IMG/VR virus record: IMGVR_UViG_3300014541_000011 | Span: 1 to 37,810 of that record | DNA from: a virus | Length of the DNA: 37,810 bases | Direction: 5' to 3' (one strand) | In this document: positions 1 through 17,580 of the stretch, in pieces | Numbering within the stretch: position 1 is the stretch's first letter | Layout of the letters: every line of letters starts with the position of its first letter | Notes under the pieces: generated by a model | What the model saw: only the letters and a program-made list of their open reading frames with translations | The model's database searches: none | What the model was told of the DNA's origin: nothing | Position numbers and translations under genes: made by a program

Positions 1-239
1 CTGCCGAGGAAATGGTGGACATGTCTTTGCCCGTTTGGTCCGACAAATACGGCGAAGAAAACGGCATACTCGGCGAAGTAAATATAGATGGCGGGCCTAA
101 TAGAGGGATTGCTTTCCCGCAACCGACAACAGGCGATTACCGTGGCTATACGTTCAAGGTCCATATTCACGGTGGCAATCAACCGTGGATTAATTTAGGC
201 CCGTCCGTTGCTTGTCACGCTTGGCGACGCCAACAGTAA
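1..239 (+). CDS. 3' part (variable tip V1a) of wrap-around collar-domain tail fibre gene that starts at 37352; ends ...GGNQPWINLGPSVACHAWRRQQ*
   Basis: Same frame as ORF at 37352..37810 through the 77-nt terminal overlap. C-terminus matches the phage tail collar domain end (GxxQPxxNxxP..Y.W). Confidence 0.75.
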   Translation, partial: AEEMVDMSLPVWSDKYGEENGILGEVNIDGGPNRGIAFPQPTTGDYRGYTFKVHIHGGNQPWINLGPSVACHAWRRQQ

Positions 240-456
240 GTGGCTAAACATGGAGGCATATTATTGTGAGGTTGATCGTTGCCCGCCCTGAATCTAATTA
301 AGTCAAGCTCATTTCGCAACATTCCCGTGGCATAGCCATGCCCCTCTCTTACCGATTGGTCATAGGAAAAGACGCCTTTGGCGAAGATTGGCATCCCTTC
401 TTCTTGTTGAGGAATGTTTTGTAATTCTCCTTCTATTTTTGCCATTTCATCGGCAG
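215..456 (-). CDS. Promoter-less alternative C-terminal tail-fibre cassette V1b (75 aa after crossover repeat 442..456), collar-domain C-half ...GNDQPHNNMPPCLATYCWRRQA*
   Basis: TGA stop immediately upstream in frame and no RBS. In-frame repeat CTGCCGAtGAAATGG (rc of 442..456) matches CTGCCGAgGAAATGG in the parent gene at 37734..37748. Paralogous to V1a, similar length. Confidence 0.7.
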
Positions 457-687
457 CTATTCATTTCTAAACCACGAATAGCAGGCAACAGCAGGTTGCA
501 TATTCTGATGTGGTTGACCGCCACCAAAGTTTAGATTGATAATTACCCCTTCCATATTTTCAGTGGCGGCGGACGGAAACTTATTGCCCGTATTATTAAC
601 GGTAAAGGCGCCACTCAGAGTTTGCTTGTTACCCCACCGCAAAATCGTGCCAATTGAACCTTTGATGGGTGCGGATTCTTCGGCAGT
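457..687 (-). CDS. Promoter-less alternative C-terminal tail-fibre cassette V1c (...GGGQPHQNMQPAVACYSWFRNE*) beginning at in-frame repeat ACTGCCGAaGAA (rc of 676..687)
   Basis: Frame is open upstream of the TTG listed in the ORF track, and no ATG is present. In-frame TAEE at the repeat is identical to TAEE in the parent gene. Collar-type C-terminus. Confidence 0.65.
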   Translation of the reverse strand, partial: TAEESAPIKGSIGTILRWGNKQTLSGAFTVNNTGNKFPSAATENMEGVIINLNFGGGQPHQNMQPAVACYSWFRNE

Positions 688-739
688 TCGGACAGCTCGG
701 ACAGGTTCGGACTGAGCCAGTCCGTTTTAGTCCGTTTTA
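688..739. repeat. Phased short repeats: TCGGAC x3 at 9-10 bp spacing (688,697,707) followed by inverted GTCCGTTTTA x2 (720..729, 730..739)
   Basis: Read directly from the sequence. Lies between the outermost fibre cassette site and the 3' end of the recombinase gene. Confidence 0.6.
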
Positions 740-837
740 ACCCCTTGACAGCCTCGTTAAGCACAAATTAAGCACAGTGGCAATGCCCATACACCTAGGC
801 TACAAGCCATTTACAGCCTTCACATCTAACTAATTAA

Positions 838-1791
838 TCATAGCTTATCTACAACTCGGCGCAATTCGGCAAGCGTCTTATGCGTGTAAACGCCCTTTGT
901 GACGCCCTTTCGGGCGTGTCCCAGAATCATCTGGCACGCCGTATCACTGGCGCCCGTGGAATCAAGCATGGATGCGCAGGTATGACGGCATTCGTGCGGG
1001 GTGTGGTGCATTTTTAAAGCCTTCATGACCTTATCAAAAAGCCGTCTGAACCCGTCGTATGTCAAGTGGTATCCGCCTTGAGCCTTGAGCGACTCAAGAA
1101 AGGGCAAGATCTTCCTTGCGATGGGGACCTTGCGCACGCCCGCCGCTGTCTTGCTGTGCTTGATGTCTAGGTATCGCTCCCGAATCTTGATGCTGGCAGG
1201 GCGGAGGGCAAGGAGTTCACCGACTCGTAGGCCCGTATAAATGAGGATTAACACGGCCTGAACGTCGGGATCATCAGCCGCCTTCCATAACCTATTGATT
1301 TCTCGGACCGTGAACGGTCGCTTGACGTGGACGGGGACGTGGGGCTTGATTTCGACGAACCTAGAATAGTCGACGGCCACAAGGTCCCGCTTCATGGCCC
1401 ACTTATACAGCTGACTGAGTAAAACACGGGCCTTCTTCTGCGTGGCATAGCCCGCTTCAATGCCGTCCATGGCGGCCTGTAAATCCTCGTATCTCAGTGA
1501 TTCCATGGGCCTATCGTGGAGCGGAGCAAGGTGCCTGTAACTACTCATATAGGCGGAAACACTTGAACGTGACAGTCCTTCAAAGTGGCGTTCTGACCAC
1601 TTTTCGTAGCCCTGGGAGAACGTTTCGGATTGACCGCCATTCAATTTCAAAAGAAAAGAGAGCGCTTCAACATGGGAAGAAAAATACCCTACTGCCTTTT
1701 GTTTTCCGTTAATGCTTTTCTTGACAACGAAGGGCCGCCGCCTGTTCCCACTTAGCTTATAAACCGTTCCGAACCCATTAGGTAATTTCAT
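838..1791 (-). CDS. Tyrosine site-specific recombinase (317 aa from ATG with GGAGG RBS; 322 aa from the upstream ATG); candidate shufflon invertase (Rci-like role)
   Basis: R...HxxR...Y motifs (TGLRVGEL, HECRHTCAS, GHARKGVTKGVYTH). Placed directly beside the inverted fibre cassettes and separate from the int/xis lysogeny pair. Confidence 0.7.
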   Translation of the reverse strand: MKLPNGFGTVYKLSGNRRRPFVVKKSINGKQKAVGYFSSHVEALSFLLKLNGGQSETFSQGYEKWSERHFEGLSRSSVSAYMSSYRHLAPLHDRPMESLRYEDLQAAMDGIEAGYATQKKARVLLSQLYKWAMKRDLVAVDYSRFVEIKPHVPVHVKRPFTVREINRLWKAADDPDVQAVLILIYTGLRVGELLALRPASIKIRERYLDIKHSKTAAGVRKVPIARKILPFLESLKAQGGYHLTYDGFRRLFDKVMKALKMHHTPHECRHTCASMLDSTGASDTACQMILGHARKGVTKGVYTHKTLAELRRVVDKL

Positions 1792-1829
1792 TTCATCAAC
1801 CTCCATGAAAAGAATAAGGAGAACGTATC

Positions 1830-2099
1830 ATGAATATCTCGTTAAGTGAAGCTATTGCCCTCCTGACCTTCACGGGCGGGATTCTGCTGTGGGTCATTCA
1901 CAGTATGATTGAGCCGCTCAAGGTCCTCTTGGATAGGACCGTGCAGGCCCTGAACCGCTTGGACACCACATTAAAAGAAGAAAGGGAAAGGCGGGAGGCT
2001 ATTGGGCTTAGGCTCCAAGCTGTAGATAGCAGAAGTAAGTCTAATAGCCACCGTCTGGATGTATTAGAGGAGCAGCAGCGAAAATGTTTGAACGGCTAA
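1830..2099 (+). CDS. Lysis-cassette membrane protein: N-terminal TM plus coiled coil (Rz/i-spanin-like or holin-associated)
   Basis: AAGGAG RBS. TM helix AIALLTFTGGILLWVI followed by a charged coiled-coil region. Confidence 0.4.
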   Translation: MNISLSEAIALLTFTGGILLWVIHSMIEPLKVLLDRTVQALNRLDTTLKEERERREAIGLRLQAVDSRSKSNSHRLDVLEEQQRKCLNG

Positions 2100-2392
2100 A
2101 AAATACGGTCAGCCGTTTGAAGGTGACTGTAAGGAGTAAGACGTATATCGTGATTGTGGCAGGGCTGTCGGCCTTGCCCATCGTGCTGGTGCTATATGCG
2201 TGGCTATTCACATGGGTGACAGGGAGCCGTGACCCGTGGTTAATCTCCATGCAGGACCAATTGTTAAAGATTATTGACCATATCATGGCCCCAGCCGTCG
2301 TTGCAGGAATTGTTGCCTATGGGGCGAAGATTGTCGACAAGGACGGCGACGGGGTTCCTGATGACTTTGAAAGGAAGGATAAAGAATGTTGA
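2084..2392 (+). CDS. Holin-like small membrane protein (2-3 TM)
   Basis: Hydrophobic stretches YIVIVAGLSALPIVLVLYAWLFTWV and IMAPAVVAGIVAYGAKIV. Lies immediately upstream of the amidase and overlaps it. Confidence 0.5.
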   Translation: MFERLKNTVSRLKVTVRSKTYIVIVAGLSALPIVLVLYAWLFTWVTGSRDPWLISMQDQLLKIIDHIMAPAVVAGIVAYGAKIVDKDGDGVPDDFERKDKEC

Positions 2393-2901
2393 AGCCGACG
2401 TTTGTTGATTACGGGCTTTGGTTTAAGCCGCTCCAAGAGCGGACTGCCACGGACTTGATTGTGATCCACCACACGGGGAATCCGACGGATGACGACTTGA
2501 GCGCCGAAGCAATCCACGAATCCCACCTTGCGCAAGATTGGGCGGGAATCGGCTATCATTTTGTCATCAGAAAGGACGGCTCCATTGAACTAGGACGGCC
2601 CATGGATACTGTAGGGGCGCACGCATACGGTTATAATAGCCGTTCCATCGGGATTCATGTTTGCGGTAACTTTGAAGTCGGAGAACCGACACCGCAACAG
2701 ATTGAATCCTGCTCCATCCTCGTTGCTTGGCTGGCGGATGAATACGGCATTGACATTGACACTGATACCGTTGTCGGACACCGTGACTTAATGGCAACCG
2801 CTTGTCCGGGTGACAACCTGTATAGCCAGCTACAGACTATCCGTGGCAAGGCCATATGGTATCAACAGCACTACGACGAGGACGGGCAGTACCATGATTA
2901 G
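2386..2901 (+). CDS. N-acetylmuramoyl-L-alanine amidase (amidase_2/PGRP fold) endolysin, no cell-wall-binding domain
   Basis: HHTGNP..., GYHFVI, GAHAYGYNSRSIGIHVCGNF and HRDL...CPG motifs typical of T7-lysozyme/PGRP amidases. Only 171 aa. Confidence 0.8.
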   Translation: MLKPTFVDYGLWFKPLQERTATDLIVIHHTGNPTDDDLSAEAIHESHLAQDWAGIGYHFVIRKDGSIELGRPMDTVGAHAYGYNSRSIGIHVCGNFEVGEPTPQQIESCSILVAWLADEYGIDIDTDTVVGHRDLMATACPGDNLYSQLQTIRGKAIWYQQHYDEDGQYHD

Positions 2902-3418
2902 GCTTCAAACAGGCATACGAATTAAGTTTTTCGCCTATACCTTTTTATGCTTCGTCATTGGCTTTTTGACGGGGTTTAGCTGGCGTGCGATTCATCACAA
3001 GTGTCAGACTCAAAAAGCCACTCAGACGGAAGATGTGGCGGTGGAATCCAAAATAGAAACCAAAACGATTGTTCGCTACGTGGAAAAGGAGTCTCCGCAG
3101 GACGCTGATGTGGATGTGACCGTGCCAAAGCAGACTTTGACCGTCAAAGTCAACGGCGAAACTCAAACCTTTAATAAATCCGACAACGAGCAATATATTT
3201 TGGACAAAAATAAAATCGCCCTGGAGCAGCAGTCCAAGGCGAGCGTTGATATCAAGGTACCCGTCATCGATGAGACACGCAAATGGGAGCTTGGCGTAGG
3301 CGTAGATAAGAATGGCCGCCCCGCTGGCATGGTCGGGTTCCCTGTCAAGGGACACGTTGGCGGATGGGTCGCAGGCAGTAAGGGTAACGTCATGGGCGGG
3401 ATCAAAGTCCACTTTTAA
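2894..3418 (+). CDS. Membrane-anchored protein (N-terminal TM plus soluble domain) ending the lysis cassette
   Basis: ATG overlaps the amidase stop (ATGATTAG). TM helix FFAYTFLCFVIGFLTGF. Confidence 0.4.
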   Translation: MIRLQTGIRIKFFAYTFLCFVIGFLTGFSWRAIHHKCQTQKATQTEDVAVESKIETKTIVRYVEKESPQDADVDVTVPKQTLTVKVNGETQTFNKSDNEQYILDKNKIALEQQSKASVDIKVPVIDETRKWELGVGVDKNGRPAGMVGFPVKGHVGGWVAGSKGNVMGGIKVHF

Positions 3419-3457
3419 AAATCGTTTGAAATCGAACGCAAATGCTGCGCACGAAGA

Positions 3458-3500
3458 AACCCCGTAAAGCTAGAAAATATCTGGCTTTACGGGGTGATTT
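3458..3500 (+). terminator. Hairpin (CCCCGTAAAGC ... GCTTTACGGGG) followed by GATTTT; terminator-like, possibly bidirectional
   Basis: Perfect 11-bp inverted repeat with a roughly 13-nt loop. Confidence 0.45.
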
Positions 3501-3514
3501 TAATTGCTTTTTAC

Positions 3515-3543
3515 TTGACAATCTAGACGATATAGTCTATAAT
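3515..3543 (+). promoter_or_regulatory. Consensus sigma-A promoter TTGACA-17 bp-TATAAT
   Basis: TTGACA at 3515..3520 and TATAAT at 3538..3543, then AGGAGGTGA RBS and an ATG at 3563. Confidence 0.7.
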
Positions 3544-3562
3544 ATAATCAGGAGGTGAGATA

Positions 3563-3658
3563 ATGGTAGATATAGAAAGAGCCCTTCAAGATTTGGCAAA
3601 TGTGATTACAATCCTGGTGGGAATTTACACATTATATCAAATCAGAAAGGGCAAGTAA
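3563..3658 (+). CDS. 31-aa hydrophobic peptide MVDIERALQDLANVITILVGIYTLYQIRKGK (type I toxin-like or holin-like; moron)
   Basis: Perfect promoter plus perfect RBS. Single TM segment with a basic C-terminus. Below the 60-aa ORF track cutoff. Confidence 0.55.
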   Translation: MVDIERALQDLANVITILVGIYTLYQIRKGK

Positions 3659-3664
3659 TCCTTC

Positions 3665-3689
3665 GGAGGCGGGATAACCGCCCGCCTCC
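3665..3689. terminator. GC-rich hairpin GGAGGCGGG-ataaccg-CCCGCCTCC downstream of the peptide gene
   Basis: 9-bp perfect stem. Weak U tract on either side. Confidence 0.4.
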
Positions 3690-3707
3690 CTATATCTATT
3701 ATAACAA

Positions 3708-3842
3708 AATGAAAAGAAAAACGCTATTAGGGATTATGCTTGGAGCGACAGTTATTGGTAATTGGGGGCGCTGGGATGCCTTATCCATAGGAGCTGTAGT
3801 ATGCCTATCCATCGCCGTTGGTATGGAGGTGTTTCGAAAATG
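3708..3842 (+). CDS. 44-aa membrane peptide (MKRKTLLGIMLGATVIGNWGRWDALSIGAVVCLSIAVGMEVFRK), translationally coupled to the downstream HTH gene
   Basis: ATGA overlap with the ORF at 3839. Two hydrophobic segments. No clear RBS. Confidence 0.35.
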
Positions 3843-4040
3843 AAACTTGCTGATGTGATGACGACGCAAGAAGCGAGCGCATTGTACGGGCGTACGGCGC
3901 ATACAATCAAGCAGGCATGTGAATCTGGACGGCTCACATCGGAAGAATGTCGTAAGTCCGGGAAGATGTGGCTCGTTACCCGTGCGGGCATGGAAAAGCT
4001 ATACGGCCCGACAGACGGCAAAAATACGGCAAAAAAATGA
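3839..4040 (+). CDS. Small HTH DNA-binding protein, excisionase (Xis)/HTH_17-like
   Basis: EASALYGRTAHTIKQACESGRL helix-turn-helix plus a W-containing wing. Convergent with and adjacent to the integrase. Confidence 0.55.
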
Positions 4041-4169
4041 TGGAAAATATACTATTTCATGGGTGAAATATCGAGGGTGTAATTTTGGCCATTGCGATGC
4101 AGTCTAGTGTTTTGGATTCATAAAAAAATATCGTTATATATCACAATTACGGAAAATAATAATGAAACG

Positions 4170-4200
4170 GCCCGTATCCCTTGTGGATACGGGCTTTTTT
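4170..4200. terminator. Rho-independent terminator (GCCCGTATCC-cttgt-GGATACGGGC-TTTTTT), bidirectional-looking
   Basis: 10-bp perfect stem plus T6. U-rich on the opposite strand as well. Flanked by direct repeats AAATACGGCAAAAA at 4023 and 4215. Confidence 0.75.
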
Positions 4201-4231
4201 AATGTGACGGCAGAAATACGGCAAAAATAAT

Positions 4232-5299
4232 TTAGTATAGAGATTCAATGGCTTTAGCTGCAACCTTATTGATGTCGTCCGTGTAATTGACGTAAACCTT
4301 GCAAACGGTGGCCACAGTGTCCCCTAAGACATGAGCGACAAGGTTAATATCTCCCGTCCTGGACAACAGGAGAGTGGCAAAGGTGTGGCGTAACGCATGG
4401 ATGGACCTACCGGGAAAGTTGCGACCAATCACACGATTCAGTTCAGTCTGAACAGAGTGCCCTTTATCAATTGGGAAAACAGTTCCTGTAATCTCCATTG
4501 GGCGTGTGTCACGCCACTTTTTTAGTTTCTGCAGGACAAGCGGAGAAGCCGGAATGGTTCGGTGGCTGTTTCGTGTTTTGCATGGACCAATACCGTAGCT
4601 ATTTTGACCAATGAGCGTGTATTGCTGGGTGATGGTAATGGTCTTTTTAAACCAGTCGATGGCATTCCAGGGTAGCCCATAAATTTCACCGAACCGCATA
4701 CCTGTGTTAGCGGCCAAGGTAATGACCAAACTATAAATCGAATTAAATTCAACAATATCTTGGAGCTTGGAAAGTTCTTCCTTCGTGAAGGCACGCAGGA
4801 TAGTAGGATTCTTTGATTGTGGGAGTTTAATTCCTTTAGCAGGATTAGAGGGGATAATCTTGTATATCTCCTTTGCATGCTCAAGCACCGGCGAGATGCA
4901 GCGTAGATGAGCCCTCTTAGAACTGGCCTTCCCTTCAATCTGCATCAAAGCGTTGGTAAGATTTGCCGTGGTAATATCCCTAATTGGCACAGTGGCAAGA
5001 TTTCCCATTTTTTTCAAGGCCAGGGCGTAATTCTTCAATGTATTTGGAGCTAAAAATTCCTTTTTGTCACGCATAAAGATGGGTAAAAATTGTTGAAGTG
5101 AAATATTTTTAAGGGTAGCGTCGTCCGTCAGGCCTTCCAATTCCTTAACTTGCGCAAGCAGCTCATCCTGATAGCGGCGGGCCTCTCTTTGATTTTTAAA
5201 TCCTTGCTTTGTCTTTTGTCGCCACTTGGTGCCGACTTTGTAGGACAGGATCAGGCAGACACCGCCATTTTTCTCACGATACGAAAAGGTATATTCCAT
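4232..5299 (-). CDS. int: Tyrosine integrase (phage integrase family, 355 aa)
   Basis: C-terminal catalytic motifs HALRHTFAT...LGDT...Y. AAAGGAG RBS. Sits beside the Xis-like gene and the repressor module. Confidence 0.85.
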   Translation of the reverse strand: MEYTFSYREKNGGVCLILSYKVGTKWRQKTKQGFKNQREARRYQDELLAQVKELEGLTDDATLKNISLQQFLPIFMRDKKEFLAPNTLKNYALALKKMGNLATVPIRDITTANLTNALMQIEGKASSKRAHLRCISPVLEHAKEIYKIIPSNPAKGIKLPQSKNPTILRAFTKEELSKLQDIVEFNSIYSLVITLAANTGMRFGEIYGLPWNAIDWFKKTITITQQYTLIGQNSYGIGPCKTRNSHRTIPASPLVLQKLKKWRDTRPMEITGTVFPIDKGHSVQTELNRVIGRNFPGRSIHALRHTFATLLLSRTGDINLVAHVLGDTVATVCKVYVNYTDDINKVAAKAIESLY

Positions 5300-5385
5300 A
5301 AAAATCAGCTCCTTTGCTGGCTTGAAAGGGGCTGGCTGTGGTAAAATAATACAGTAAGCCCCTTTGGTAGGTGGGTTACGCTTTT

Positions 5386-5421
5386 CCCTGCTGGTACCGC
5401 AAATACCAGCAGGGATTTTTT
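5386..5421 (+). terminator. Strong hairpin CCCTGCTGGTA-ccgcaaa-TACCAGCAGGG followed by ATTTTTTATTT
   Basis: 11-bp perfect stem plus a T run on the + strand, between int and the exonuclease gene. Confidence 0.6.
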
Positions 5422-6466
5422 ATTTATCTTCTCTGATTTTGTACTGATGCACATAATCAGCAGGAAGCGGTGGTGCAAGCTTCTTTTCTATGATGGTGGC
5501 AATAAGATCTTTTTTCAGACCCTTCGTGGGAAGCCCGGCGTCTGCCAGAATCTTTTGAAGGTCTGCCTTATGCAGCTTACTCAATTCAATCTCATTGGAA
5601 ACATCTACAAGGCGGGCATATGTTCCCGGATTCACAAAGTCCCTAATGAAATCTTCTTTTGAGTAATTTTTTGGCTTTTCCTTGTATAAGGATTCGTAGG
5701 AAATCCCACCAGCGTAAGTCTTTGCCTCATACAAGACAGCCTTGACAAAAAGTTCCTCAGAAAACCGGTACAGAGATTTGATGATGGGGACTGTCCCTTT
5801 ATCCATGGTATCCTGCATGATTTGGGCACATGCCTTGGCATCAGACAGGGATTCATGGTGATTCAAGTCGAGATTGAGATATTTACAGATGGTGTCCAGC
5901 TTGTAGTTTTCCAGATTCCTGTAGGTGTATCTGGCACTCTGCAGAGAGTCGGCAAAGAGAAGCGGTTTATCCAGGGTGATTCCTTCCGTCTTAGCGGTAT
6001 AGATCAGACAGCCCATATCAAAGTTGGCGTTGTGTGCCACCAGGGGGAACCCTTTGATGAAATCGCGGAAGGTGGATTCATAGAATTCTTTGAAGGTGGG
6101 AGAATTCCGAACTTTTGACCAGGTGATTCCATGGACATAGGAATTCGTGAATTTTGCTTCCGGAGGCTTAATCAAAGAAGTGACAGAACCAGTGAACTGC
6201 CGGTTTTCAACTTTTACGGCGGAAATACTACAGATTGAATATGGCTGCGCATTGGCAGTTTCCACATCGAATGCCACAAAGCTGTCCATCGGGACCCTGT
6301 ATTCATTTGTCACCGGCAGTCTTACCCTTGCAAATCCCTTGTATTCGGGAAGCCTAAATGGGGCCAGTTCATCTGGCTTCATGGGAGATTCTGCAATCAT
6401 CCTGTCCTTTGCTTTTTTATTTAAAATGACAACAACGAAAATAACAATGACAATTAATAATGCCAT
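5420..6466 (-). CDS. Membrane-anchored DnaQ-like (DEDDh) 3'-5' exonuclease with C-terminal SAP domain
   Basis: N-terminal TM ALLIVIVIFVVVIL. Exo motifs FDVETA, HNANFDMGCL and H..SLSDAKAC. C-terminal DLQKILADAGLPTKGLKKDLIATIIE (SAP-like). Confidence 0.6.
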   Translation of the reverse strand: MALLIVIVIFVVVILNKKAKDRMIAESPMKPDELAPFRLPEYKGFARVRLPVTNEYRVPMDSFVAFDVETANAQPYSICSISAVKVENRQFTGSVTSLIKPPEAKFTNSYVHGITWSKVRNSPTFKEFYESTFRDFIKGFPLVAHNANFDMGCLIYTAKTEGITLDKPLLFADSLQSARYTYRNLENYKLDTICKYLNLDLNHHESLSDAKACAQIMQDTMDKGTVPIIKSLYRFSEELFVKAVLYEAKTYAGGISYESLYKEKPKNYSKEDFIRDFVNPGTYARLVDVSNEIELSKLHKADLQKILADAGLPTKGLKKDLIATIIEKKLAPPLPADYVHQYKIREDK

Positions 6467-6475
6467 AATATCACC

Positions 6476-6742
6476 CTATTCCCCATCTTTGATGTAGATT
6501 TCTAAGCCTTCTGAAATCTGGAAGTTATTCGAGCTGGCATGACAGGCATTCTCAATGGAATCCACATCTTCTTCTTTAAACAAATCATCCCCTACGATGT
6601 GGTTGAGTTCGTGCTTCATGGCCAGTCTTTTCTTCTCATCGGATAAATTGTCATTGATGATGATTGTATAGGAGTCGTCCGGATTCTGCTGGACGACTGC
6701 CGGAACGCTGGGTGGCAGATCCTGATAGGTGACGATGATCAT
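6476..6742 (-). CDS. ImmA/IrrE-family metallopeptidase (short form, HEXXH)
   Basis: HELNHIVGDD motif. Overlaps the upstream XRE repressor gene by 4 nt (ATGA). Confidence 0.6.
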   Translation of the reverse strand: MIIVTYQDLPPSVPAVVQQNPDDSYTIIINDNLSDEKKRLAMKHELNHIVGDDLFKEEDVDSIENACHASSNNFQISEGLEIYIKDGE

Positions 6743-7134
6743 TGCGGCGAACCTTCCTTCTTTTTCAGGCCGTTGATGACGGTCATGACGACCTTGATGT
6801 CATCAGGAGACAGGTCTTTCGAGGCATCGAACAGGGTGCGCTGACCAGGATTATCTTTCAGTTCTTGTGCTAGTTTGGCGGTTTCTGGATCCAGGTAGTA
6901 AACGCTTCGAGAAGCCTTTCCCATTAGATAGTCTGTATCTACGTTAAAAAAGTCTGCAAGCTGCTCTAAAATCTCAAAGCTGGGTTTTCTGCTACCGACT
7001 TCATACATAGAGACTGTACTGGTAGATACTCCCAATTTTTCTGCTAACTCACTTTGTGTTAAACCAGCAGACTGTCTCATTTGCTTTAATCTATCTTTGA
7101 ACTCAGGCATTTCTTCATCCCCTTTCGTTTCCAC
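6739..7134 (-). CDS. XRE-family HTH repressor (CI/ImmR-like)
   Basis: QSELAEKLGVSTSTVSMYE HTH. Divergent from the cro-like gene. Confidence 0.8.
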   Translation of the reverse strand: METKGDEEMPEFKDRLKQMRQSAGLTQSELAEKLGVSTSTVSMYEVGSRKPSFEILEQLADFFNVDTDYLMGKASRSVYYLDPETAKLAQELKDNPGQRTLFDASKDLSPDDIKVVMTVINGLKKKEGSPQ

Positions 7135-7190
7135 ATCTTAATACTACACTTTTCGTGTAATAAATTCAAGAAGGATTTCACAGTACAGTG

Positions 7191-7233
7191 TTGACATATA
7201 CACTTAAAGTGATATAATTACACTGAAAGTGAG
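7191..7233 (+). promoter_or_regulatory. Early rightward promoter (TTGACA 7191..7196, TATAAT 7213..7218) with TCACTTaAAGTGA-type operator half-palindromes at 7200..7212 and 7221..7233
   Basis: Near-consensus hexamers. Palindrome copies overlap the promoter. A third, perfect copy CTCACTTaAAGTGAG lies at 7455..7469. Confidence 0.6.
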
Positions 7234-7249
7234 AACGGAGGTGAGAATT

Positions 7250-7471
7250 ATGGTGTCTATTGACCGTAAAACCATTGGGAAAAAGCTCCGCGAGTTACGG
7301 GAACAGCGTGGAGAGTCCGTGAGTTATTTAGGCAAGAAAATAGGAGTCAGCGAGTCAACTATTTACATGTACGAGCAGGGCGAACGAATGCCCAGAGATT
7401 CCGTAAAAGTACTGCTGATAAAGCACTTTGGCATATCGTCTGACTTTTTTTTGACTCAAAATCTCACTTAA
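7250..7471 (+). CDS. Cro-like XRE-family HTH regulator (73 aa)
   Basis: GGAGGTGA RBS. HTH LGKKIGVSESTIYMYE. Confidence 0.75.
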   Translation: MVSIDRKTIGKKLRELREQRGESVSYLGKKIGVSESTIYMYEQGERMPRDSVKVLLIKHFGISSDFFLTQNLT

Positions 7472-7498
7472 AGTGAGCAAAATGAGGAGCATTTTTAA

Positions 7499-8281
7499 AT
7501 GAAAAAACTAGAAATTTTTCAAAATAAAAGTTTCGGCCGCATCAGAACACTGGCTATCAACAATGAGCCTTGGTTTGTTGGCAAGGACGTTGCTGAAATA
7601 CTCGGGTATGCAAAGCCTGAAAATGCCATTGCAAACCATGTGGATGAAGAAGACAAAACCAGTACCCTGATTCAGGGGAGTGGTTCAAATTACAAAAGCA
7701 AAGCAATCATCATCAATGAATCAGGACTCTACAGCCTGGTTCTATCCAGTAAGTTGCCGTCAGCCAAAGAGTTCAAGCGGTGGATCACCCACGAAGTCAT
7801 CCCCGCTATCCGGAAACACGGTGCCTATATGACCGAGGATACCCTTGAAAAGGCATTGACCAGCCCCGACTTCTTGATTCAGCTGGCAACTCAGCTGAAG
7901 GAAGAGAAAGAAAAGCGACTTGCTGCAGAAAAGCAAATTGAAATGGACCGACCGAAGACCATCTTCGCCGATGCGGTGAGTGTCAGTAAAGACGGCATCC
8001 TGGTAGGAGCTTTGGCCAAACTGATCCACCAGAACGGAGTGGAAATCGGGCAAAAACGCCTGTTCCAGTGGCTGCGGGATCATGGATACCTGATGAAATC
8101 CGGGGCAGACAAGAATATGCCAACTCAGAAGGCCAGGGACATGGATCTGTTCAAGGTAAAAGAACGGACCATCAACAACCCGGATGGATCAGTGAGACTG
8201 ACCAGGACAACCCTGGTGACTGGCAAAGGGCAGCAGTACTTCGTGAATAAGTTTTTGGCGGGGAGGGAATCCCATGACTGA
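7499..8281 (+). CDS. Phage antirepressor (Bro-N plus KilA-C/ANT domains)
   Basis: N-terminal FGRIRTLAINNEPWFVGKDVAEILGY is typical of Bro-N. Confidence 0.8.
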   Translation: MKKLEIFQNKSFGRIRTLAINNEPWFVGKDVAEILGYAKPENAIANHVDEEDKTSTLIQGSGSNYKSKAIIINESGLYSLVLSSKLPSAKEFKRWITHEVIPAIRKHGAYMTEDTLEKALTSPDFLIQLATQLKEEKEKRLAAEKQIEMDRPKTIFADAVSVSKDGILVGALAKLIHQNGVEIGQKRLFQWLRDHGYLMKSGADKNMPTQKARDMDLFKVKERTINNPDGSVRLTRTTLVTGKGQQYFVNKFLAGRESHD

Positions 8282-8495
8282 AGAGGGAAAAAAGAAAGAG
8301 CCCTGCAAAAGCAAGGCTCTTGTTGAAAGAAAGCTTAGCCAGGAAAGGCTAAGGAAGCTGTTGCATGTGTCGATGATCTTGACGGAAGCTTCCCAGACAG
8401 CCGACAGGGAACTTCTGGAAGCTTACCAGGAAACTTCAGAGCACCTCGACCGCTTAATAGTGGCAGAGGTTAGATGCCAAGAAAAGACATTGTAA
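8274..8495 (+). CDS. Hypothetical small protein
   Basis: ORF overlapping the antirepressor stop (ATGA). Confidence 0.4.
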   Translation: MTEEGKKKEPCKSKALVERKLSQERLRKLLHVSMILTEASQTADRELLEAYQETSEHLDRLIVAEVRCQEKTL

Positions 8496-8838
8496 CATGT
8501 TCGGCGATTGTCTTGACGATGGACAGAGACGCTTGACCGCCGACTGAAGCCAACTTTTCTTTGGTCTTTTCCCAAATTGATGCTGACCGGATGGAGTCTA
8601 CATAATCACAACCATCATTAGTCAGCCATTTCACCAGGTATTGCGGGTAGTAGTGCCCGATTGTATTGACTTCATAAGCGTCAATATATCCGGCATCTGC
8701 CAAAAGGTACAGATGGTAATCCACAATATTCTGGTCCGGCTCCAGATCCGCGAAATCGGAGCTGCTTAGAGTGGCATTTTTCTCATTGGTTTCAATACGA
8801 AGAAGAATGTTACGGATTAAATCGAGATTTCTCTTCAC
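8470..8838 (-). CDS. Hypothetical protein on the opposite strand (moron-like), likely GTG start after GGAGGTGA
   Basis: Own RBS and a TATAAT-like -10 in the divergent 8848..8904 spacer. Confidence 0.45.
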   Translation of the reverse strand: MKRNLDLIRNILLRIETNEKNATLSSSDFADLEPDQNIVDYHLYLLADAGYIDAYEVNTIGHYYPQYLVKWLTNDGCDYVDSIRSASIWEKTKEKLASVGGQASLSIVKTIAEHVTMSFLGI

Positions 8839-8904
8839 CAGGATCACCTCCTTCCGTTACCCATTATATCAGAAGGAGAGTGAAGAACAGAAAGGAGGCT
8901 AGCC

Positions 8905-9201
8905 ATGGAACCCAAAGTCATGACAGCGCAGGAGGCGGCAGAGGTCCTTAACGTGTCGCTCTCCACCATCTACAACCTGCGCGACCGCGGCACACTGCCA
9001 CAGCTTACCAAGCTCCCAGGGGTCCGTTTTGCGGCCAAGGATGTAATGGACATTGTCGGCGTTAATTCATACTTTTATACGCCAGCCAGAATGAAAGAGC
9101 TGCAGAGAGAGTTGGACCGTAAGGACGCCAGGATTAAGACATTGGAAGCGCTGCTCCGAGGAGCAGCATCGACAATCTTAGACGGACTAAAAGGAGGGTA
9201 A
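8905..9201 (+). CDS. HTH DNA-binding protein (excisionase/MerR-like HTH_17)
   Basis: AAAGGAGG RBS. AAEVLNVSLSTIYNLRDRGTLP HTH. Confidence 0.55.
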   Translation: MEPKVMTAQEAAEVLNVSLSTIYNLRDRGTLPQLTKLPGVRFAAKDVMDIVGVNSYFYTPARMKELQRELDRKDARIKTLEALLRGAASTILDGLKGG

Positions 9202-9205
9202 AAAA

Positions 9206-9499
9206 ATGAGAACAAGAAGGAAAGTCGGCATCATTGCAACGGCACTTATTACTGCAGGCGTCCTGACCGCAGGCGCGATATGGCGAGAGCGGACCAAACC
9301 AGAACCTACCGACTATTTGACATTTGAGCATACGGTCCACACAGGTGACAGCCTCTGGAGCCTCTGCGAGCGGTATGGTGGCTATGAGGACATCCAGACC
9401 ATCATTATGCGGGTGCGGGAGGACAATGGAATCAAAGAGCCAGGGGCACTGCAGCCAGGACAGAAAATCAAGGTCAGAGTCAGAAAGGGGAATCGGTGA
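9206..9499 (+). CDS. LysM-domain protein with N-terminal membrane anchor
   Basis: TM IIATALITAGVLTAGAI. LysM-like HTVHTGDSLWSLCERYG...PGQKIKV. Confidence 0.6.
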   Translation: MRTRRKVGIIATALITAGVLTAGAIWRERTKPEPTDYLTFEHTVHTGDSLWSLCERYGGYEDIQTIIMRVREDNGIKEPGALQPGQKIKVRVRKGNR

Positions 9500-9813
9500 T
9501 GATTGATACTGACTGCAGCGTATGCCCTTTTGCTGCTAAATGCCCGAAGCAAGACAACCCCGAAAGAATCCCATGGAGTCAAGGTGGATTGGGGCTATGT
9601 CCCAAAGTTGAAATCGGATGGGCGCAACCAACCTGCAAAGTCTGCCATTTCGCTGGCAAGGTCGGAAGTCGGGGCGGGGCAAAAATCCGACACTGCCGAA
9701 CCTGCATGTTGCTTCCCGATGAGCCGATTGTACAGAACATTAAAGGGCGCAAGAAAAACTGCCCATTTATGGAACGAGTAATAAAGGAAAGAGCTTTAGA
9801 CGACGTGTTTTGA
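9499..9813 (+). CDS. Cys-rich putative zinc-binding protein
   Basis: Multiple CxxC pairs (CSVC, CKVC, CRTC). Confidence 0.4.
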   Translation: MIDTDCSVCPFAAKCPKQDNPERIPWSQGGLGLCPKVEIGWAQPTCKVCHFAGKVGSRGGAKIRHCRTCMLLPDEPIVQNIKGRKKNCPFMERVIKERALDDVF

Positions 9814-9841
9814 CTTGTCAAAAACGACCGATTTTGACAAG
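9806..9841. promoter_or_regulatory. Cluster of TTTTGAC half-sites in alternating orientation (TTTTGACttGTCAAAA and CTTGTCAAAA-n8-TTTTGACAAG)
   Basis: Perfect 10-bp inverted repeat inside a 150-bp non-coding gap. Confidence 0.5.
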
Positions 9842-9968
9842 AAATTAGTGAAATGTCTTTAGAGATTTACTCAACATTTTAGAAAAATGAGGAAAGACTA
9901 GTGCTAGATTCACTTTGCTTTTTGATTGTTTTAGGCATTTGTGTCGTAAGGATAAGGAGATGAAAAAG

Positions 9969-10337
9969 ATGCCATATTATAAGCCTCACATAGCAACATG
10001 GTTTGGCAGATTTAGGCCATCAAGATTTGTGTATGACTGGAGAACTAAAATCGATCACAATTACTTTTACTTCGAAAACGGATATGGCGCCAGTGTGGTC
10101 CAAGGTCCGTTCACATACGGCGGGCGTGATGGAATGTGGGAGCTGGCTGTGCTTGAAAAGACCATCCACGACTGGCAGTTTGCGGACGGAAATCCGCTTG
10201 GCAGTGAAGTTATTGGCCATCTCACAGAGGTGGAAGTCGAAGAGTTGTTGGAAAAAACTGAAAAAATGCCAGCTAGTGAAAAAGAAAAGGAGAGAAAAAA
10301 ATGCATATTACGGAAGACCAAGCAGTCCAGGCGTTGA
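9969..10337 (+). CDS. Hypothetical protein
   Basis: AGGAG RBS upstream of the second ATG. Overlaps the next gene. Confidence 0.4.
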   Translation: MPYYKPHIATWFGRFRPSRFVYDWRTKIDHNYFYFENGYGASVVQGPFTYGGRDGMWELAVLEKTIHDWQFADGNPLGSEVIGHLTEVEVEELLEKTEKMPASEKEKERKKCILRKTKQSRR

Positions 10338-10714
10338 TCACGCTGATTGGCTATTACCGTCAAGAAGAAATTTCGCAAGAGAATCCTTGCGAAAGTAAGG
10401 TCAACTCCATCCCCCAGATGGCCGTTGAGCGCATGGCTCAGATGAACGTCGAGGACCGGGTTAGCTCAGATCCCGTCTATCATCCTAGTCACTATTCTTG
10501 GAGAGGCGGCATGGAAGCCGCAGACATTGCGGCGGAGATGACAAGAGGCGCAGAAGGAGTGGAAGCTTACTGGATTGGCTGCACCATAAAATATCTTTAC
10601 CGATATCCAAAAAAGAACGGGCTCCAGGACATCGACAAGGCAATTGAGTGTCTGAAGCTTCTCAGAAAAGTCATGTCAAAAAAGGTGCAGAAAAATGCAA
10701 ACCCGTTGGAGTGA
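10301..10714 (+). CDS. DUF3310-family phage protein
   Basis: HPSHY...AYWIGCTIKYLYRY pattern typical of DUF3310. Confidence 0.5.
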   Translation: MHITEDQAVQALITLIGYYRQEEISQENPCESKVNSIPQMAVERMAQMNVEDRVSSDPVYHPSHYSWRGGMEAADIAAEMTRGAEGVEAYWIGCTIKYLYRYPKKNGLQDIDKAIECLKLLRKVMSKKVQKNANPLE

Positions 10715-11189
10715 GTGGCAGGAACTGGTCCTGACGGCCCGCCTCATTGCCCTAGACCACCTGAAGCACCTTGAAAAGGACCCCGAAGACAGAGACGCTA
10801 TCAGCTATTTTCACGGTTTGGAGTTTAAGAGGTGGTTTTCCAATCCCGCCAATGAGCCAATTGATGCCGTGACCATCTGGCACAGAAAACCGATAGCAGT
10901 GGCCAAGTCCTTGAGACTGGTCAGTGAGCCGCCACCGTTTGCTGAATTGCCTAAACCGACTCGGCACTGTAAGGCGTGTGGACGAGAGGTGCCACGCGGC
11001 AAAAATTACTGTGATGAGTGCAAAATTAAGCGCTACAGGGCCTATGAGACAAGACGGGCACTAAAACGTAAGGAAGCCCGCAGAAAGAGGCGGGAAGAAG
11101 CAAAAAAGGCATTAATTGATCAGCTAACCACACTCCGATCGGCAACGAGAAAACTGACAAAAATGATTGAAAAGCTAAAAAAAGAATGA
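10695..11189 (+). CDS. Hypothetical protein with zinc-ribbon (CKACG...CDEC) and basic tail
   Basis: ORF with RBS and a CxxC...CxxC motif. Confidence 0.4.
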   Translation: MQTRWSEWQELVLTARLIALDHLKHLEKDPEDRDAISYFHGLEFKRWFSNPANEPIDAVTIWHRKPIAVAKSLRLVSEPPPFAELPKPTRHCKACGREVPRGKNYCDECKIKRYRAYETRRALKRKEARRKRREEAKKALIDQLTTLRSATRKLTKMIEKLKKE

Positions 11190-11270
11190 GGCCTCCGCGC
11201 TGCAACGCAAAGACCTCGGGTGAACCTTTAGGACAGGTTTCACCCCATTATAACATGGGAGGAATGGGAA

Positions 11271-11450
11271 ATGAAAAGACCGAAGAAATTTCGCAGTTTC
11301 ATGTTCCAACTTTTTAAAAATGTGACACTGACCAACCTTTGCACTGCTCTGAGGTTGGCAGAAATTAACGAAGAAGAAACTCCTGAGTATGTCTACTGGC
11401 TCTATCGGATCATCGATGCCGAGGAGCTGCCAGATGAGGAGGAAAAATAA
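11271..11450 (+). CDS. Small acidic protein (59 aa)
   Basis: GGGAGG RBS. Stop overlaps the ATPase start (TAATG). Confidence 0.35.
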   Translation: MKRPKKFRSFMFQLFKNVTLTNLCTALRLAEINEEETPEYVYWLYRIIDAEELPDEEEK

Positions 11451-13411
11451 TGAAACTGATTACATTAACTCTCGAAAACTTTAAGGGCATCCAATCCTTT
11501 AGCCTGGATGCTGAAGGCCAAAATGCCGAAGTCTACGGCAGCAATGGATGCGGAAAATCAACCCTCTTTGATGCTTTTACTTGGCTCCTTTTCGGCAAGA
11601 ACAGCCATGATGAAAAGGACTTTGGAATCAAGACCTTGGACGAGAATGGTGAGGTCATCCCCCGTATCGATCACAAGGTCACGGCCGTGATTGAGCACGA
11701 TGGACGGCAGATTGAGCTGACGAGGACATACAAGGAAAAATGGCGCAAGCAGCGGGGCGCCGCTGAAGCTGTCATGGTTGGAAATACGACTGAATATGCC
11801 TATGGCCCAGTCGGGGCCGCGACGCCCATCAGCGCGGGCGAATATGCCAAGGCCATTAACGGTCTCATCGATGAAAAGATCTTTAAGCTCATTACGGATC
11901 CCCTTTATTTCAACGAACGCCTGTCTTGGCAGGAGCGCCGTCAGCTCCTGATGCAGCTCTGTGGCGACGTGACGGACGATGAAATCGTCAAGGCCAATGC
12001 GGACCTGGAGGAGGTCCTTAATCTGGCAGCAGGCCGTGACCTTGAAACCACGAAAAAAGGCGTCAGGGCCGCGATTAGAGCCACGAAAAAGGAGAAGGAT
12101 GAAATCGGTCCCCGAATGGACGAATGTCGGAAGAGCCTGGTCGATATTAATCTTGCGAGTCTTGACGACGCCAGGATTGACGTCAAGACGATCCCAGAAA
12201 AGATCGAAGCCCTGAGGCAAGAAAAGATGGCCAAGTCCTCCATGGACCAGAAGGTCAAAGCCCAGGAAGAACTGGCGACGATTAAGGCTAAGATTGTGGC
12301 GCTTAAATCGGCCAGGGAAACGGCCTATCAAGAACGGATGCGGGATTTGATGAATAAGGAAATGGAAGCGCAGAAATCGGCATCGGAGCAAAAGGAAATC
12401 TGTGATGGCCTTTGGGCGCAGCATGCTGCATTTCGCAATGAAATTGACCGCATCAACAAGAACTTGGATGGCCTCAGAAATCACTTTAGAGAGGTTTTTT
12501 CTAAAGTCTTTAATAAACCCCCTATCGACACGATTTGTCCCACCTGTGGCCAAAATCTGCCGCCAGAGAGGGTGGAAAAAGCTAAGGCGGCTATGGAAAA
12601 AGACGAAGCTGATTTTAAACAGCAAAGAGCAGAATTGTTGAAGAAAATCCGCGAAGAAGGCAAGGCCAAGAAGGCTGACCTGGAATCCAAGCAAAAGGAG
12701 CTGGCAGACCTTGAAACGAAGGCCAAGGAGGCAGACGAGAACCTTATCGTTCGGCAAGATTTTAGGGATGAATTTGCCACTCGGGCCAAGCTCCTCAAAG
12801 TCGCAGACCCAAGCGAAGAAGAGGTCCGCCTCATTCAGCGGGCCATGGACATCAAAGCGCACATGGACCAGCCTAAGGAAGATCCTAGCCTGGCCCAATA
12901 TGACCAGAAAATTGCAAAGCTCACTGCCAAGCTTGATGCAGCCAAGACCATCATCACTGCAGCTGACCGCAACAATCAGCTTAATGCACGCATTGGCGAG
13001 CTGCTAAAGGAAGAAAAGGCCCTTTCCGAGCATCTGATTAATCTGGAGCGACAGCTTTATCTCTGCGAAACGTTCGTGCGCGAAAAAACGGACCGCTTAA
13101 GTGCAAAACTGACAGAGAAGATTCCGAATGTGAATTTTATTATGTTTAAACCTAACGTCACGAACGAGGGTATTGAAGAATGTTGCGAGACCAGCTATCA
13201 CGGCATCCCATATAAGGACCTCAACACGGGCGCAAGGATTAATGTGGGACTTGAAATCATCAAAGCCCTGACGGACGAATATCATGTGACAGCCCCGATT
13301 TTTATTGATAACGCCGAAAGCGTCGTCAAACTGGTCGACATGCCGAGCCAGATGATTAGACTCGTGGTTAGTGAAAATGACAAGACTTTGAGAGTGGAAA
13401 AGGAGAATTGA
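11450..13411 (+). CDS. SMC/SbcC-like AAA ATPase with long coiled coil (recombination/replication-associated)
   Basis: N-terminal Walker A GSNGCGKST. Extensive coiled-coil middle region. Immediately upstream of RecT. Confidence 0.75.
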   Translation: MKLITLTLENFKGIQSFSLDAEGQNAEVYGSNGCGKSTLFDAFTWLLFGKNSHDEKDFGIKTLDENGEVIPRIDHKVTAVIEHDGRQIELTRTYKEKWRKQRGAAEAVMVGNTTEYAYGPVGAATPISAGEYAKAINGLIDEKIFKLITDPLYFNERLSWQERRQLLMQLCGDVTDDEIVKANADLEEVLNLAAGRDLETTKKGVRAAIRATKKEKDEIGPRMDECRKSLVDINLASLDDARIDVKTIPEKIEALRQEKMAKSSMDQKVKAQEELATIKAKIVALKSARETAYQERMRDLMNKEMEAQKSASEQKEICDGLWAQHAAFRNEIDRINKNLDGLRNHFREVFSKVFNKPPIDTICPTCGQNLPPERVEKAKAAMEKDEADFKQQRAELLKKIREEGKAKKADLESKQKELADLETKAKEADENLIVRQDFRDEFATRAKLLKVADPSEEEVRLIQRAMDIKAHMDQPKEDPSLAQYDQKIAKLTAKLDAAKTIITAADRNNQLNARIGELLKEEKALSEHLINLERQLYLCETFVREKTDRLSAKLTEKIPNVNFIMFKPNVTNEGIEECCETSYHGIPYKDLNTGARINVGLEIIKALTDEYHVTAPIFIDNAESVVKLVDMPSQMIRLVVSENDKTLRVEKEN

Positions 13412-13412
13412 A

Positions 13413-15070: not shown

Positions 15071-15075
15071 TTCGG

Positions 15076-15831: not shown

Positions 15832-15842
15832 GAGGGAAGACT

Positions 15843-16652: not shown

Positions 16653-16791
16653 CGAGAAAGCTTAGAAGAAAGCAATGGCATCAAGCCTTTAGGGTGATGG
16701 GAGCAATGAATAACACCGATTTGATCAACTTGTTTATCGGCCGGCTGTCACTAAAAGCCTTGATATACCTTTTGAAGAAAGGAGCGTAACC

Positions 16792-17232: not shown

Positions 17233-17250
17233 CGAAAGAAGGCATGAAGA

Positions 17251-17559: not shown

Positions 17560-17580
17560 GCTGCAAAAGGAGAAAGCATA

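Follow-up and report, generated by a model that had tools for sequence, protein, structure and literature searches.

The joining of a constant N-terminus to alternative C-termini by DNA inversion has been described in plasmids and in phages. In the R64/IncI shufflon, the tyrosine recombinase Rci and the sfx sites of pilV provide a constant N-terminus with alternative C-termini. The sfx sites, studied by the Komano laboratory, are reportedly asymmetric, with a 7-bp core and one conserved arm, and are said to support inversions only. Tail-fibre switches that work by inversion and alter host range, known since Mu, include Mu G/Gin, P1 C/Cin, e14 Pin and p15B Min; their enzymes are serine invertases, which need an enhancer and Fis and make 2-bp crossovers within sites of ~26 bp. 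Here we describe a related arrangement in IMG/VR virus record IMGVR_UViG_3300014541_000011, positions 1 to 37,810 (this whole stretch of 37,810 nucleotides is called the window). The subject is the tail-fibre gene F2 and the array of silent C-terminal modules behind it (locus 1, 37352..687), together with a second array at another fibre gene, F1 (locus 2). Locus 1 is probably a multiple-inversion shufflon and, with slightly less confidence, the tyrosine recombinase gene beside it is likely to encode the enzyme.

The closest described system is the Rin shufflon of Bifidobacterium breve/longum prophages, which was, according to its authors, the first case of a tyrosine-family invertase encoded by a phage (Mavrich et al., 2018, Sci Rep 8:12772, PMC6109161). 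Rin comprises a constant part (Rc), start-less Rv cassettes in both orientations, 11-bp rix repeats and a flanking arm-less recombinase (PMC6109161). The present locus shares with Rin a constant fibre part, start-less cassettes in two orientations with a short asymmetric repeat each, isomers formed by inversion at the repeats (observed here in sister lineages), and an arm-less tyrosine recombinase that flanks the array and is separate from the phage integrase. However, Rin belongs to Actinobacteria and to TP901-1/1358-like receptor-binding proteins, whereas Negativicutes, a contractile tail and a T4 gp10-like C-terminal domain are found here. The site is CTGCCGA-N-GAR... rather than TTCCCTAACCC. 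Also unlike Rin, the crossover lies inside a conserved domain so that the units of exchange are half-domains, the 3' ends of convergent modules share 22-25 nt, and two arrays at two fibre genes, with distinct 7-mers, are accompanied by apparently one invertase gene.

An earlier note on this DNA, made from the sequence alone, had named R64 pilV, Mu G and P1 C as precedents. The likeness holds for a constant part with alternative C-termini, but Rin is closer, Mu and P1 use serine invertases, and a plasmid search revealed no similarity of the recombinase here to Rci. The site layout resembles that of R64, with a 7-mer, a cassette-side arm of ~9 nt and an uninformative left flank, although the right arm, where it is conserved, also encodes a conserved peptide. 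R64 concerns the tip of a conjugative pilus on a plasmid, in contrast to a phage fibre here, and the site sequences are unrelated. As in Mu, P1, e14 and p15B, a fibre gene has a constant part and convergent alternative C-terminal modules on an invertible segment, and p15B Min has multiple crossover sites, as here. Unlike Mu and P1, the window has no serine recombinase, and half-domains of ~75-100 aa are exchanged without a chaperone gene (U/U' are swapped there).

Programmed inversions have also been surveyed in bacterial reference genomes, where tail-fibre proteins were statistically enriched as targets and viruses were not characterised (Milman et al., 2023, PMC9881135). Cases from that survey, for example the hsdS shufflons of Type I restriction-modification (R-M) systems and a PilV/tail-collar fusion gene, resemble the present locus in the in-frame exchange of half-genes that set specificity, at short inverted repeats beside a tyrosine recombinase; neither the present phage family nor a two-locus design is described there (PMC9881135). 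A search of the literature collection used here found no paper linking shufflons with Negativicutes phages. The kind of system is already known, and the present case is a different phage family with some new details.

Two fibre genes with silent half-domains

The window is a circular contig (1..77 identical to 37734..37810) with a unique circle of 37733 bp, and F2 runs across its ends. The features of locus 1 are:

37352..37733, plus strand: F2 constant part, residues 1-127, with a short N-terminal region and the first half of Gp10_C
1..15 (= 37734..37748), plus strand: site S1-0, CTGCCGA-G-GAAATGG
16..239, plus strand: module C0, the currently expressed second half of Gp10_C, VDMS...HAWRRQQ-stop
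215..441, minus strand: silent module CA, AKIEG...CWRRQA-stop, stop at 215..217
442..456, minus strand: site S1-A, CTGCCGA-T-GAAATGG
457..675, minus strand: silent module CB, SAPIKG...YSWFRNE-stop, stop at 457..459, directly abutting S1-A
676..687, minus strand: site S1-B, (A)CTGCCGA-A-GAA, 7-mer intact
688..837, no strand: spacer from the array to the recombinase stop, with short direct and inverted repeats CGGAC/GTCCG

Translation supports the wrap-around gene proposed by the earlier note: F2 (37352..37733 + 1..239) encodes 206 aa, ...HQLTAEEM/VDMS...HAWRRQQ-stop, and falls in PHROG families of tail or tail-fibre proteins. Its label as a collar-domain gene has to be replaced, as Pfam gives Gp10_C (PF21939, the C-terminal domain of T4 baseplate gp10) at residues 62-204 with 60.2 bits (cut-off 27; profile 2-138 of 139), and no hit to Collar (PF07484) even at E<=1, the fusion proteins included. 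Against solved structures, the F2 constant half has a sequence match only to T4 gp10 residues 450-490.

The inverted repeats are real. Positions 1..15 and 442..456 are complementary at 14 of 15 positions, and 1..11 and 676..686 at 10 of 11; the third copy is present and inverted as claimed, but its extent had to be corrected to 11-12 nt. A scan of both strands of the 37.8 kb found CTGCCGANGAA only at 1..11 (= 37734..37744, plus strand), 446..456 (minus) and 676..686 (minus), which makes three unique sites against 0.07 expected, a number reached in none of 100 shuffles. All three sites stand in the same codon phase (T/A-A-D/E-E), as had been stated. The right arm of S1-B (TCCGCA) deviates from the family consensus (NT-RSC), and because of this atypical arm S1-B may be a weaker site through which CB is reached less often.

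Each silent frame is the missing second half of a domain begun in the constant part. Cassette A reads (I)AADEM-AKIEG...PHNNMPPCLATYCWRRQA-stop and is open from a TGA that lies immediately upstream, and cassette B reads TAEE-SAPIKG...QPHQNMQPAVACYSWFRNE-stop; both minus-strand frames run for ~75 codons to their own stops, in agreement with the earlier description. The F2 constant part alone covers only profile positions 2-72 of 139 in Gp10_C (49.4 bits), whereas in-silico fusions to CA and CB cover 2-138 of 139 with 69.9 and 70.5 bits, respectively, so that the expressed form scores lower than either silent-module fusion. Close homologues of both modules are expressed as C-termini elsewhere. 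CA is 92% identical to the C-terminus of full-length P0041 (junction LTAGEM/AKIEGEL), and CB is 87.5% identical to the C-terminus of P0061, with exactly the predicted junction GERMHQLTAEE/SAPIKGS, and 90% identical to that of P0032. The proposed fusion of the constant part to alternative tips is therefore sustained, each fusion restoring a full Gp10_C. Moreover, column entropy in a 112-homologue alignment is ~0.5 bits through residue 130, exceeds 2 bits from residue 131 and drops again at the conserved tail PHNN..P....W(R/K)R, while among the 181 homologue pairs with 95% or higher identity in the constant part, 161 have modules of <50% identity.

These results bear on a rival view, in which the frames on the minus strand would be small genes of their own or remains of pseudogenes, and the repeats incidental. 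The earlier note had called the cassettes start-less, which holds for B (no ATG at all) and for A as far as a Shine-Dalgarno sequence is concerned; however, A has an in-frame ATG (445..443), which gives a 76-aa open reading frame (ORF) in the mechanical list. It is the only ATG in cassette A and forms the Met codon inside the repeat. A ribosome-binding site is lacking, and cassette B and most modules of relatives have no ATG. The frames are exactly the missing half (profile ~73-139) of Gp10_C, their close homologues are found only as C-termini of full-length proteins, and they are open across many lineages. Independent genes or debris are thus an extremely improbable explanation.

By analogy, the swapped half may be the receptor-contacting surface. 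An AlphaFold2 prediction of F2 from the 112-sequence alignment gave a mean pLDDT of 46.9 and a pTM of 0.21, which is an unusable model.

C0 and CA converge, and their 3' ends (239 and 215) have 25 nt in common within the palindrome TTGGCGaCGCCAA. This near-palindrome encodes the conserved tail on both strands (W-R-R-Q; Y-W-V-R-T-Q at locus 2), and a convergent 3' overlap of modules is also present in relatives (b.c in L004), an unusual degree of compaction. The overlap was considered as a terminator and rejected: by eye the stem has only ~5 bp around a 3-nt loop, a T-run is missing, and the hairpin scan did not list it. The spacer 688..837 contains a terminator-like hairpin (708..724) and two copies of AGTCCGTTTT, followed by TTGACA-N17-ATTAAGCACA. 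Relatives have kept this element, and in four other lineages its GACA...TTAAGCACA part does not vary. It looks like a plus-strand promoter, which would point into the recombinase gene in antisense and beyond it to the lysis genes.

A second array of identical design is found at the preceding fibre gene F1, 1.1 kb from locus 1, with these features:

35017..36216, plus strand: F1 full gene, 399 aa, PF12571 tail-fibre N-terminal domain and PF21939, PHROG tail-fibre families
35017..35896, plus strand: F1 constant part, tail-fibre N-terminal domain and first half of Gp10_C
35897..35915, plus strand: site S2-0, TCA-CTGAGAG-T-GAATTGGC
35916..36216, plus strand: locus 2 module C0, expressed, AKITPK...CYWVRTQ-stop
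36195..36458, minus strand: locus 2 module CA, silent, APHSH...AYWVRTQ-stop, its 3' end overlapping the F1 3' end by 22 nt (36195..36216)
36459..36475, minus strand: site S2-A, CTGAGAG-T-GAACTGGCA, 16/17 complementary to S2-0
36480..36762, minus strand: locus 2 module CB, silent, APHTH...AYWERTA-stop
36763..36781, minus strand: site S2-B, 19/19 complementary to S2-0

The sequence TCACTGAGAGTGAATTGGC at 35897..35915 coincides with an L-T-E-S-E-L motif, and CTGAGAGTGAAYTGGC has three sites here against 0.01 expected and occurs nowhere else in the window. The silent minus-strand frames are start-less and 88-94 aa long. Gp10_C in F1 scores 36.3 bits, above the Pfam cut-off. In the fusion comparison the expressed form reached 39.0 bits with partial domain coverage, and F1 fused to CA or CB reached 53.7 and 54.2 bits with full coverage.

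The outer flank of S2-B (ttatctcctttc on the minus strand; 36763..36793) is the Shine-Dalgarno sequence (AAAGGAG) of the next gene, with its ATG at 36790. This flank is kept in all lineages and is not moved by inversion, so the downstream translation signals are left undisturbed. In the window and its relatives, two classes of module can be distinguished just past the junction, one with HxH (APHTH, APHSH, PSHGH, GPHTH) and one with (K/H)-I-x-G-(D/E) (AKIEGE, LPHIRGD, LPKIKGD). A single array can hold both classes, and the HxH class is reminiscent of the metal-binding HxH motifs of fibre tips.

Inversion isomers and the point of exchange

Public contigs of sister lineages that are 99-100% identical in DNA differ only by inversions ending on these sites. 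In the L004 lineage, whose recombinase is 89% identical to that of the window, the order is constant-S-a(+)-S-b(+).c(-)-S-d(-)-S-recombinase. L112 equals L004 with 713 bp inverted between the first and third sites (S1xS3) at 100% identity, L116 has the order constant-b.c-a(-)-d(-), and L113 and L117 have constant-d(+)-b.c-a(-). This lineage therefore provides four isomers, in which one constant part is found joined to each of modules a, b, c and d.

The lineage closest to the window is ~92% identical in nucleotides, with constant parts 98-98.5% identical in amino acids. The sole difference between L124 and L118 is a 468-bp inversion at locus 1, and the sole difference between L122 and L118 is an 885-bp inversion at locus 2 over the same span as window 35897..36781 (S2-0 x S2-B). 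The isomer proteins of the L118 group, P0002 and P0003, have a common constant part and different modules. Similarly, L001, an Acidaminococcus intestini prophage, differs from L002/L003 by a 560-bp inversion at locus 2 and a different module order at locus 1. Comparison with the window itself gives the same picture: L004 expresses a 98%-identical homologue of the locus 2 module CB with the C0 homologue inverted, the breakpoints falling on S2-0, S2-A and S2-B, and the homology of L029 to the window (92.6%) ends exactly at S1-0. Inversion at the repeats, as the earlier note had proposed, has thus occurred in nature, and alignment of these contigs shows it in sister lineages with breakpoints exactly on homologous sites.

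L004 and L005 also differ by an inversion, of ~450 bp, at 88% identity. In oriented coordinates (L004 5150..5596, L005 4914..5360), the central ~100 bp, which hold the overlapping module tails, are un-inverted; either inversion took place twice, or the conserved PHNN motif is a further point of recombination. The L005 array mixes two 7-mers, CCACCGA and CTGCCGA, and L005 has apparently imported a module related to CB of the window. This pair had suggested that the site's left half remains joined to the upstream DNA, a view that was dropped, as the pair is diverged (88%) and L005 mixes 7-mers.

The point of exchange can be placed using the 100%-identity isomers, in which position 11 at locus 1 and position 8 at locus 2 always move with the module, and four left flanks re-pair with four right sides. 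Exchange therefore takes place within the block of 7-10 nt to the left of these positions. In the event that separates L118 and L122, the partner sites were mismatched at position 8 (G vs T), so a mismatch such as G/T/A among the locus 1 sites of the window is no bar to exchange. Over 72 distinct sites the left flank is nearly uninformative; to its right stand the 7-mer, position 8, which is free, GA, which is invariant, and R-N-T-R-S-C, which is weak. Each phage uses a single 7-mer per locus, L005 being the one exception, and the 7-mer varies among phages and between loci: CTGCCGA, CCACCGA and CTACCGA at locus 1, with CCGAAGG in a more distant group, and CTGAGAG at locus 2. The overlap region of a tyrosine recombinase must match between partners, and the 7-mer behaves as expected of such a region. 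Different 7-mers would also keep the two loci from recombining with each other. In L012/L014 two sites stand head to head as a perfect 22-nt palindrome, TTCCTCGGTAG/CTACCGAGGAA, which is absent from the window; through such abutting sites, divergent modules share a site pair.

The same data bear on general homologous recombination, by host RecA or phage RecT, between repeats that owe their existence to the paralogy of the modules. The phage does encode RecT and a nuclease-like partner, and the repeats match a conserved peptide motif and would exist anyway. However, the identity blocks are 7-19 nt long, and efficient substrates of RecA and RecT are far longer. In the 100%-identity isomers the breakpoints are always in the 7-10 nt block and never in the PHNN...WRR tail, several isomers carry essentially zero point mutations, and a specialised recombinase clade is always adjacent. 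We consider this explanation very unlikely, and site-specific inversion is preferred.

Recombinases and probable switching in the present phage

Two genes for tyrosine recombinases are present in the window:

838..1806, minus strand: arm-less tyrosine recombinase, candidate invertase; ORF running to 1806, likely start ATG at 1791, 317 aa
4232..5299, minus strand: phage integrase proper, outside the switch, with Arm-DNA-bind_4 and a catalytic domain

The tyrosine recombinase that the earlier note had placed near the array directly adjoins locus 1 (838..1791). The ATG at 1791 is the probable start because GGAGG lies 8 nt upstream and relatives also begin with MKLPNG. Within 838..1806 Pfam finds a Phage_integrase catalytic domain and a weak SAM-like (core-binding) domain, and no arm domain. 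Residues R194, K219, H271, R274, H297 and Y307 are invariant in 12 relatives (57-89% identical), and the enzyme of the window is intact. In a synteny survey by tblastn, in which 100+ loci were fetched via the recombinase protein, all recombinases that are at least 52% identical and have enough downstream sequence lie beside mixed-orientation fibre modules, followed by an F2-type constant part; in most of these loci an F1-type array is present further on. None of the recombinases at or below 47% identity has the module-tail motif downstream.

The gene at 4232..5299 is assigned as the integrase because of its arm DNA-binding domain and its neighbours, an Xis-like helix-turn-helix (HTH) protein (3762..4040) and a repressor module (6739..7134). 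Among 60 scanned ORFs, which include every plausibly coding ORF of at least 80 aa, there is no recombinase besides these two and no Resolvase-type (serine) domain; a serine invertase elsewhere in the phage was accordingly excluded by whole-genome annotation. NCBIfam has no tyrosine-invertase model that matches the array recombinase, with weak sub-threshold Xer/integron matches only. A tblastn search of 72,556 PLSDB plasmids gave no Rci-like match, the best being generic integrases at ~32% identity, and Escherichia is absent from the ten most frequent organisms in the matches. IncI plasmids carry Rci and are numerous in PLSDB. An exact-protein look-up of the recombinase returned the source contig only.

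The mechanism that we propose is as follows. The F2 constant part stops halfway through Gp10_C at L-T-A-E-E-M, and three modules of ~75 aa, with their own stops, encode the second half. In front of each module stands an asymmetric site of ~16 nt, made of the 7-mer CTGCCGA, a free position 8 and a weak cassette-side arm (GAR-NT-RSC). Strand exchange within the 7-mer, between forward S1-0 and reverse S1-A or S1-B, would produce an inversion that brings a new module into frame, so that four isomers and three proteins could be reached at locus 1. With its own 7-mer, CTGAGAG, F1 would raise the number of fibre-tip combinations to as many as 3 x 3. The most likely enzyme would be the arm-less tyrosine recombinase at 838..1791, serving both loci, and the likely consequence would be a switch of receptor or host specificity.

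Several points weigh against this reading, the first of which concern the enzyme. In the L118 lineage the recombinase has an in-frame deletion of ~108 aa (window residues ~107-211), which takes away TGLRVGE, the motif that holds the first catalytic arginine, along with half of the core-binding domain, and yet isomers are found at both loci (99.9-100% identity). The array-adjacent recombinase is only 214 aa long in L118 (4507-5151), L119, L124, L029 and L114. Furthermore, a recombinase gene is absent from this place in the L002/L003 lineage. Isomers in one lineage with a damaged recombinase, and the lack of the gene in the other, indicate that inversion does not in every case need the adjacent gene in cis, and they lower confidence in it as the sole enzyme, not in inversion. 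In the L118 lineage, switching could depend on a related invertase in trans or on another enzyme, or the deletion allele could have been moved by homologous recombination. The L118-lineage case is comparable to the rin gene with a premature stop in the Rin paper (PMC6109161). In L002 (8727-9240) and L003 both modules are direct, the second has a hybrid 3' end (..PHNNMPPYYTLAFIMKL-stop) and a holin-like gene follows directly; this array looks fixed or decayed.

It follows that the array might invert through an enzyme other than, or additional to, the adjacent recombinase, supplied in trans by a related prophage or by another host or phage enzyme, for example the arm-type integrase. The L118/L124 isomers and the absence of the gene from L002/L003 speak for such a supply, as do a Megasphaera genome with two prophages of the family (L031, L035) and the occurrence of both the window phage and L029 in the source metagenome 3300045988. 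A phage inversion locus without a flanking recombinase has also been reported (Mavrich et al., PMC6109161). On the other hand, the adjacent recombinase of the window has all its catalytic residues, the clade-specific synteny of recombinase and array is hard to explain if the recombinase is idle, and supply by a relative of the same clade would be a version of the proposed mechanism. The arm-type integrase has its own Xis-like partner and sits in the lysogeny module. We regard an enzyme in trans as unlikely for the window and prefer the adjacent recombinase.

The other points on the opposing side concern the sites, the swapped half and this exact phage. Conservation of the right arm is inseparable from coding constraint (D/E-E-L/M-A/P), the locus 1 sites share just 7-8 nt of uninterrupted identity with the S1-B arm off consensus, and no structure backs the swapped half as the exposed, receptor-binding part. 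Among assembled contigs none has an alternative isomer of the window's phage, and a degenerate scan of metagenome contigs found neither the constant/CA nor the constant/CB junction, a negative that is weak because an assembly keeps just the major isomer. In IMG/VR, exact scanning with the locus 1 constant 26-mer and the CA and CB 5' ends likewise gave nothing, and other assemblies found via an F2 exact-protein look-up (L125, L126) are 100% identical and have the same isomer.

The contig ends nevertheless provide evidence of another kind. The first base of the S1-0 7-mer is where the window (circle + 77 nt) opens. In the ENA/JGI contig NODE_199_length_37788 (circle + 55 nt), the terminal overlap lies at window 450..504 and on the minus strand ends in ...GAATAG-CTGCCGA, that is, at base 7 of the S1-A 7-mer. 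A 15-nt repeat cannot branch a de Bruijn graph at k=55 or k=77, but read-level heterogeneity can, and so the ends point to mixed reads. Both contig-end k-mers are exactly the convergence/divergence vertices to be expected if the parental form were mixed with the S1-0 x S1-A recombinant, and the chance of one arbitrary contig start at such a position is estimated at ~1e-4. In addition, L123 and L116, two short contigs of sister lineages, break off precisely at the point where the identity between two locus 2 sites runs out. This suggests that the source reads of the window phage mix isomers, and we infer that inversion also occurs in this exact phage. The argument is an indirect one and the reads behind the two assemblies are perhaps not independent, which also counts against the proposed reading.

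Locus 1 of the window could instead be a frozen relic, whose ancestors inverted while this phage no longer does. The single isomer in all assemblies, the negative junction scan, and sites that share only a 7-mer, all differ at position 8 and include the off-consensus S1-B arm would fit this account. However, neither silent module is damaged, their frames being open and their tails conserved. The recombinase is intact as well, a position-8 mismatch was tolerated in a real event, and two assemblies break exactly at the S1-0 and S1-A 7-mer edges. As assemblers report the majority isomer, missing minor isomers are weak evidence for it. A relic is in our judgement even less likely than an enzyme in trans, and an active shufflon is the preferred reading for the window. 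A broader model is possible rather than probable: one invertase would serve two shufflons that have a shared arm, N-GAR-NT-RSC, and locus-specific cores; it would work in trans for the dead-invertase L118 lineage; and half-domains would be exchanged, also between distant phages.

The phage family and the likely meaning of the switch

Judged by its gene content and relatives, the phage is a temperate, contractile-tailed phage of gut Negativicutes (Megasphaera/Acidaminococcus group). Its structural genes encode terminase, portal, protease, capsid, sheath, tube and tape measure, with baseplate genes that include J-like and Mu Gp48-like proteins, and lysis genes, a cI/antirepressor module, RecT and SSB are also present. 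The isolates that carry the family are all Negativicutes, namely Megasphaera species, among them M. hexanoica MH and M. massiliensis NP3, and Acidaminococcus intestini DSM 21505. A megablast search of the fibre region against GenBank phages gave zero matches, so there is no annotated close relative there. RecT (13413..14333) is accompanied by a metallo-beta-lactamase-fold protein in the region 13413..15070, and an RNase_T-type exonuclease with a SAP domain (5420..6466) lies beside the integrase, separate from RecT. Between the two fibre genes, at 36790..37356, there is a 108-aa ORF without family match, and a 42-aa Cys-rich ORF (CxxC...CxxxC) overlaps the F2 start; both might be fibre assembly factors.

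The finding extends phage tyrosine-invertase shufflons, so far from Bifidobacterium (Rin), to another phylum and tail type. The 100%-identical isomers together with the varying 7-mers are unusually clean natural data for mapping the crossover of a tyrosine recombinase, and switching with a crippled invertase raises the question of invertases shared in trans between prophages. The tolerance of a Gp10_C-type fibre domain to a swap of its C-terminal half would be useful for the engineering of receptor-binding proteins. An assembly of such a phage gives an arbitrary snapshot, or is broken at the sites. For gut phages the practical unknown that matters most is host range, and phages of Negativicutes (Megasphaera, Acidaminococcus) are scarcely known. 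As one prophage may hold several switchable fibre tips, a single genome sequence would under-report its host range.

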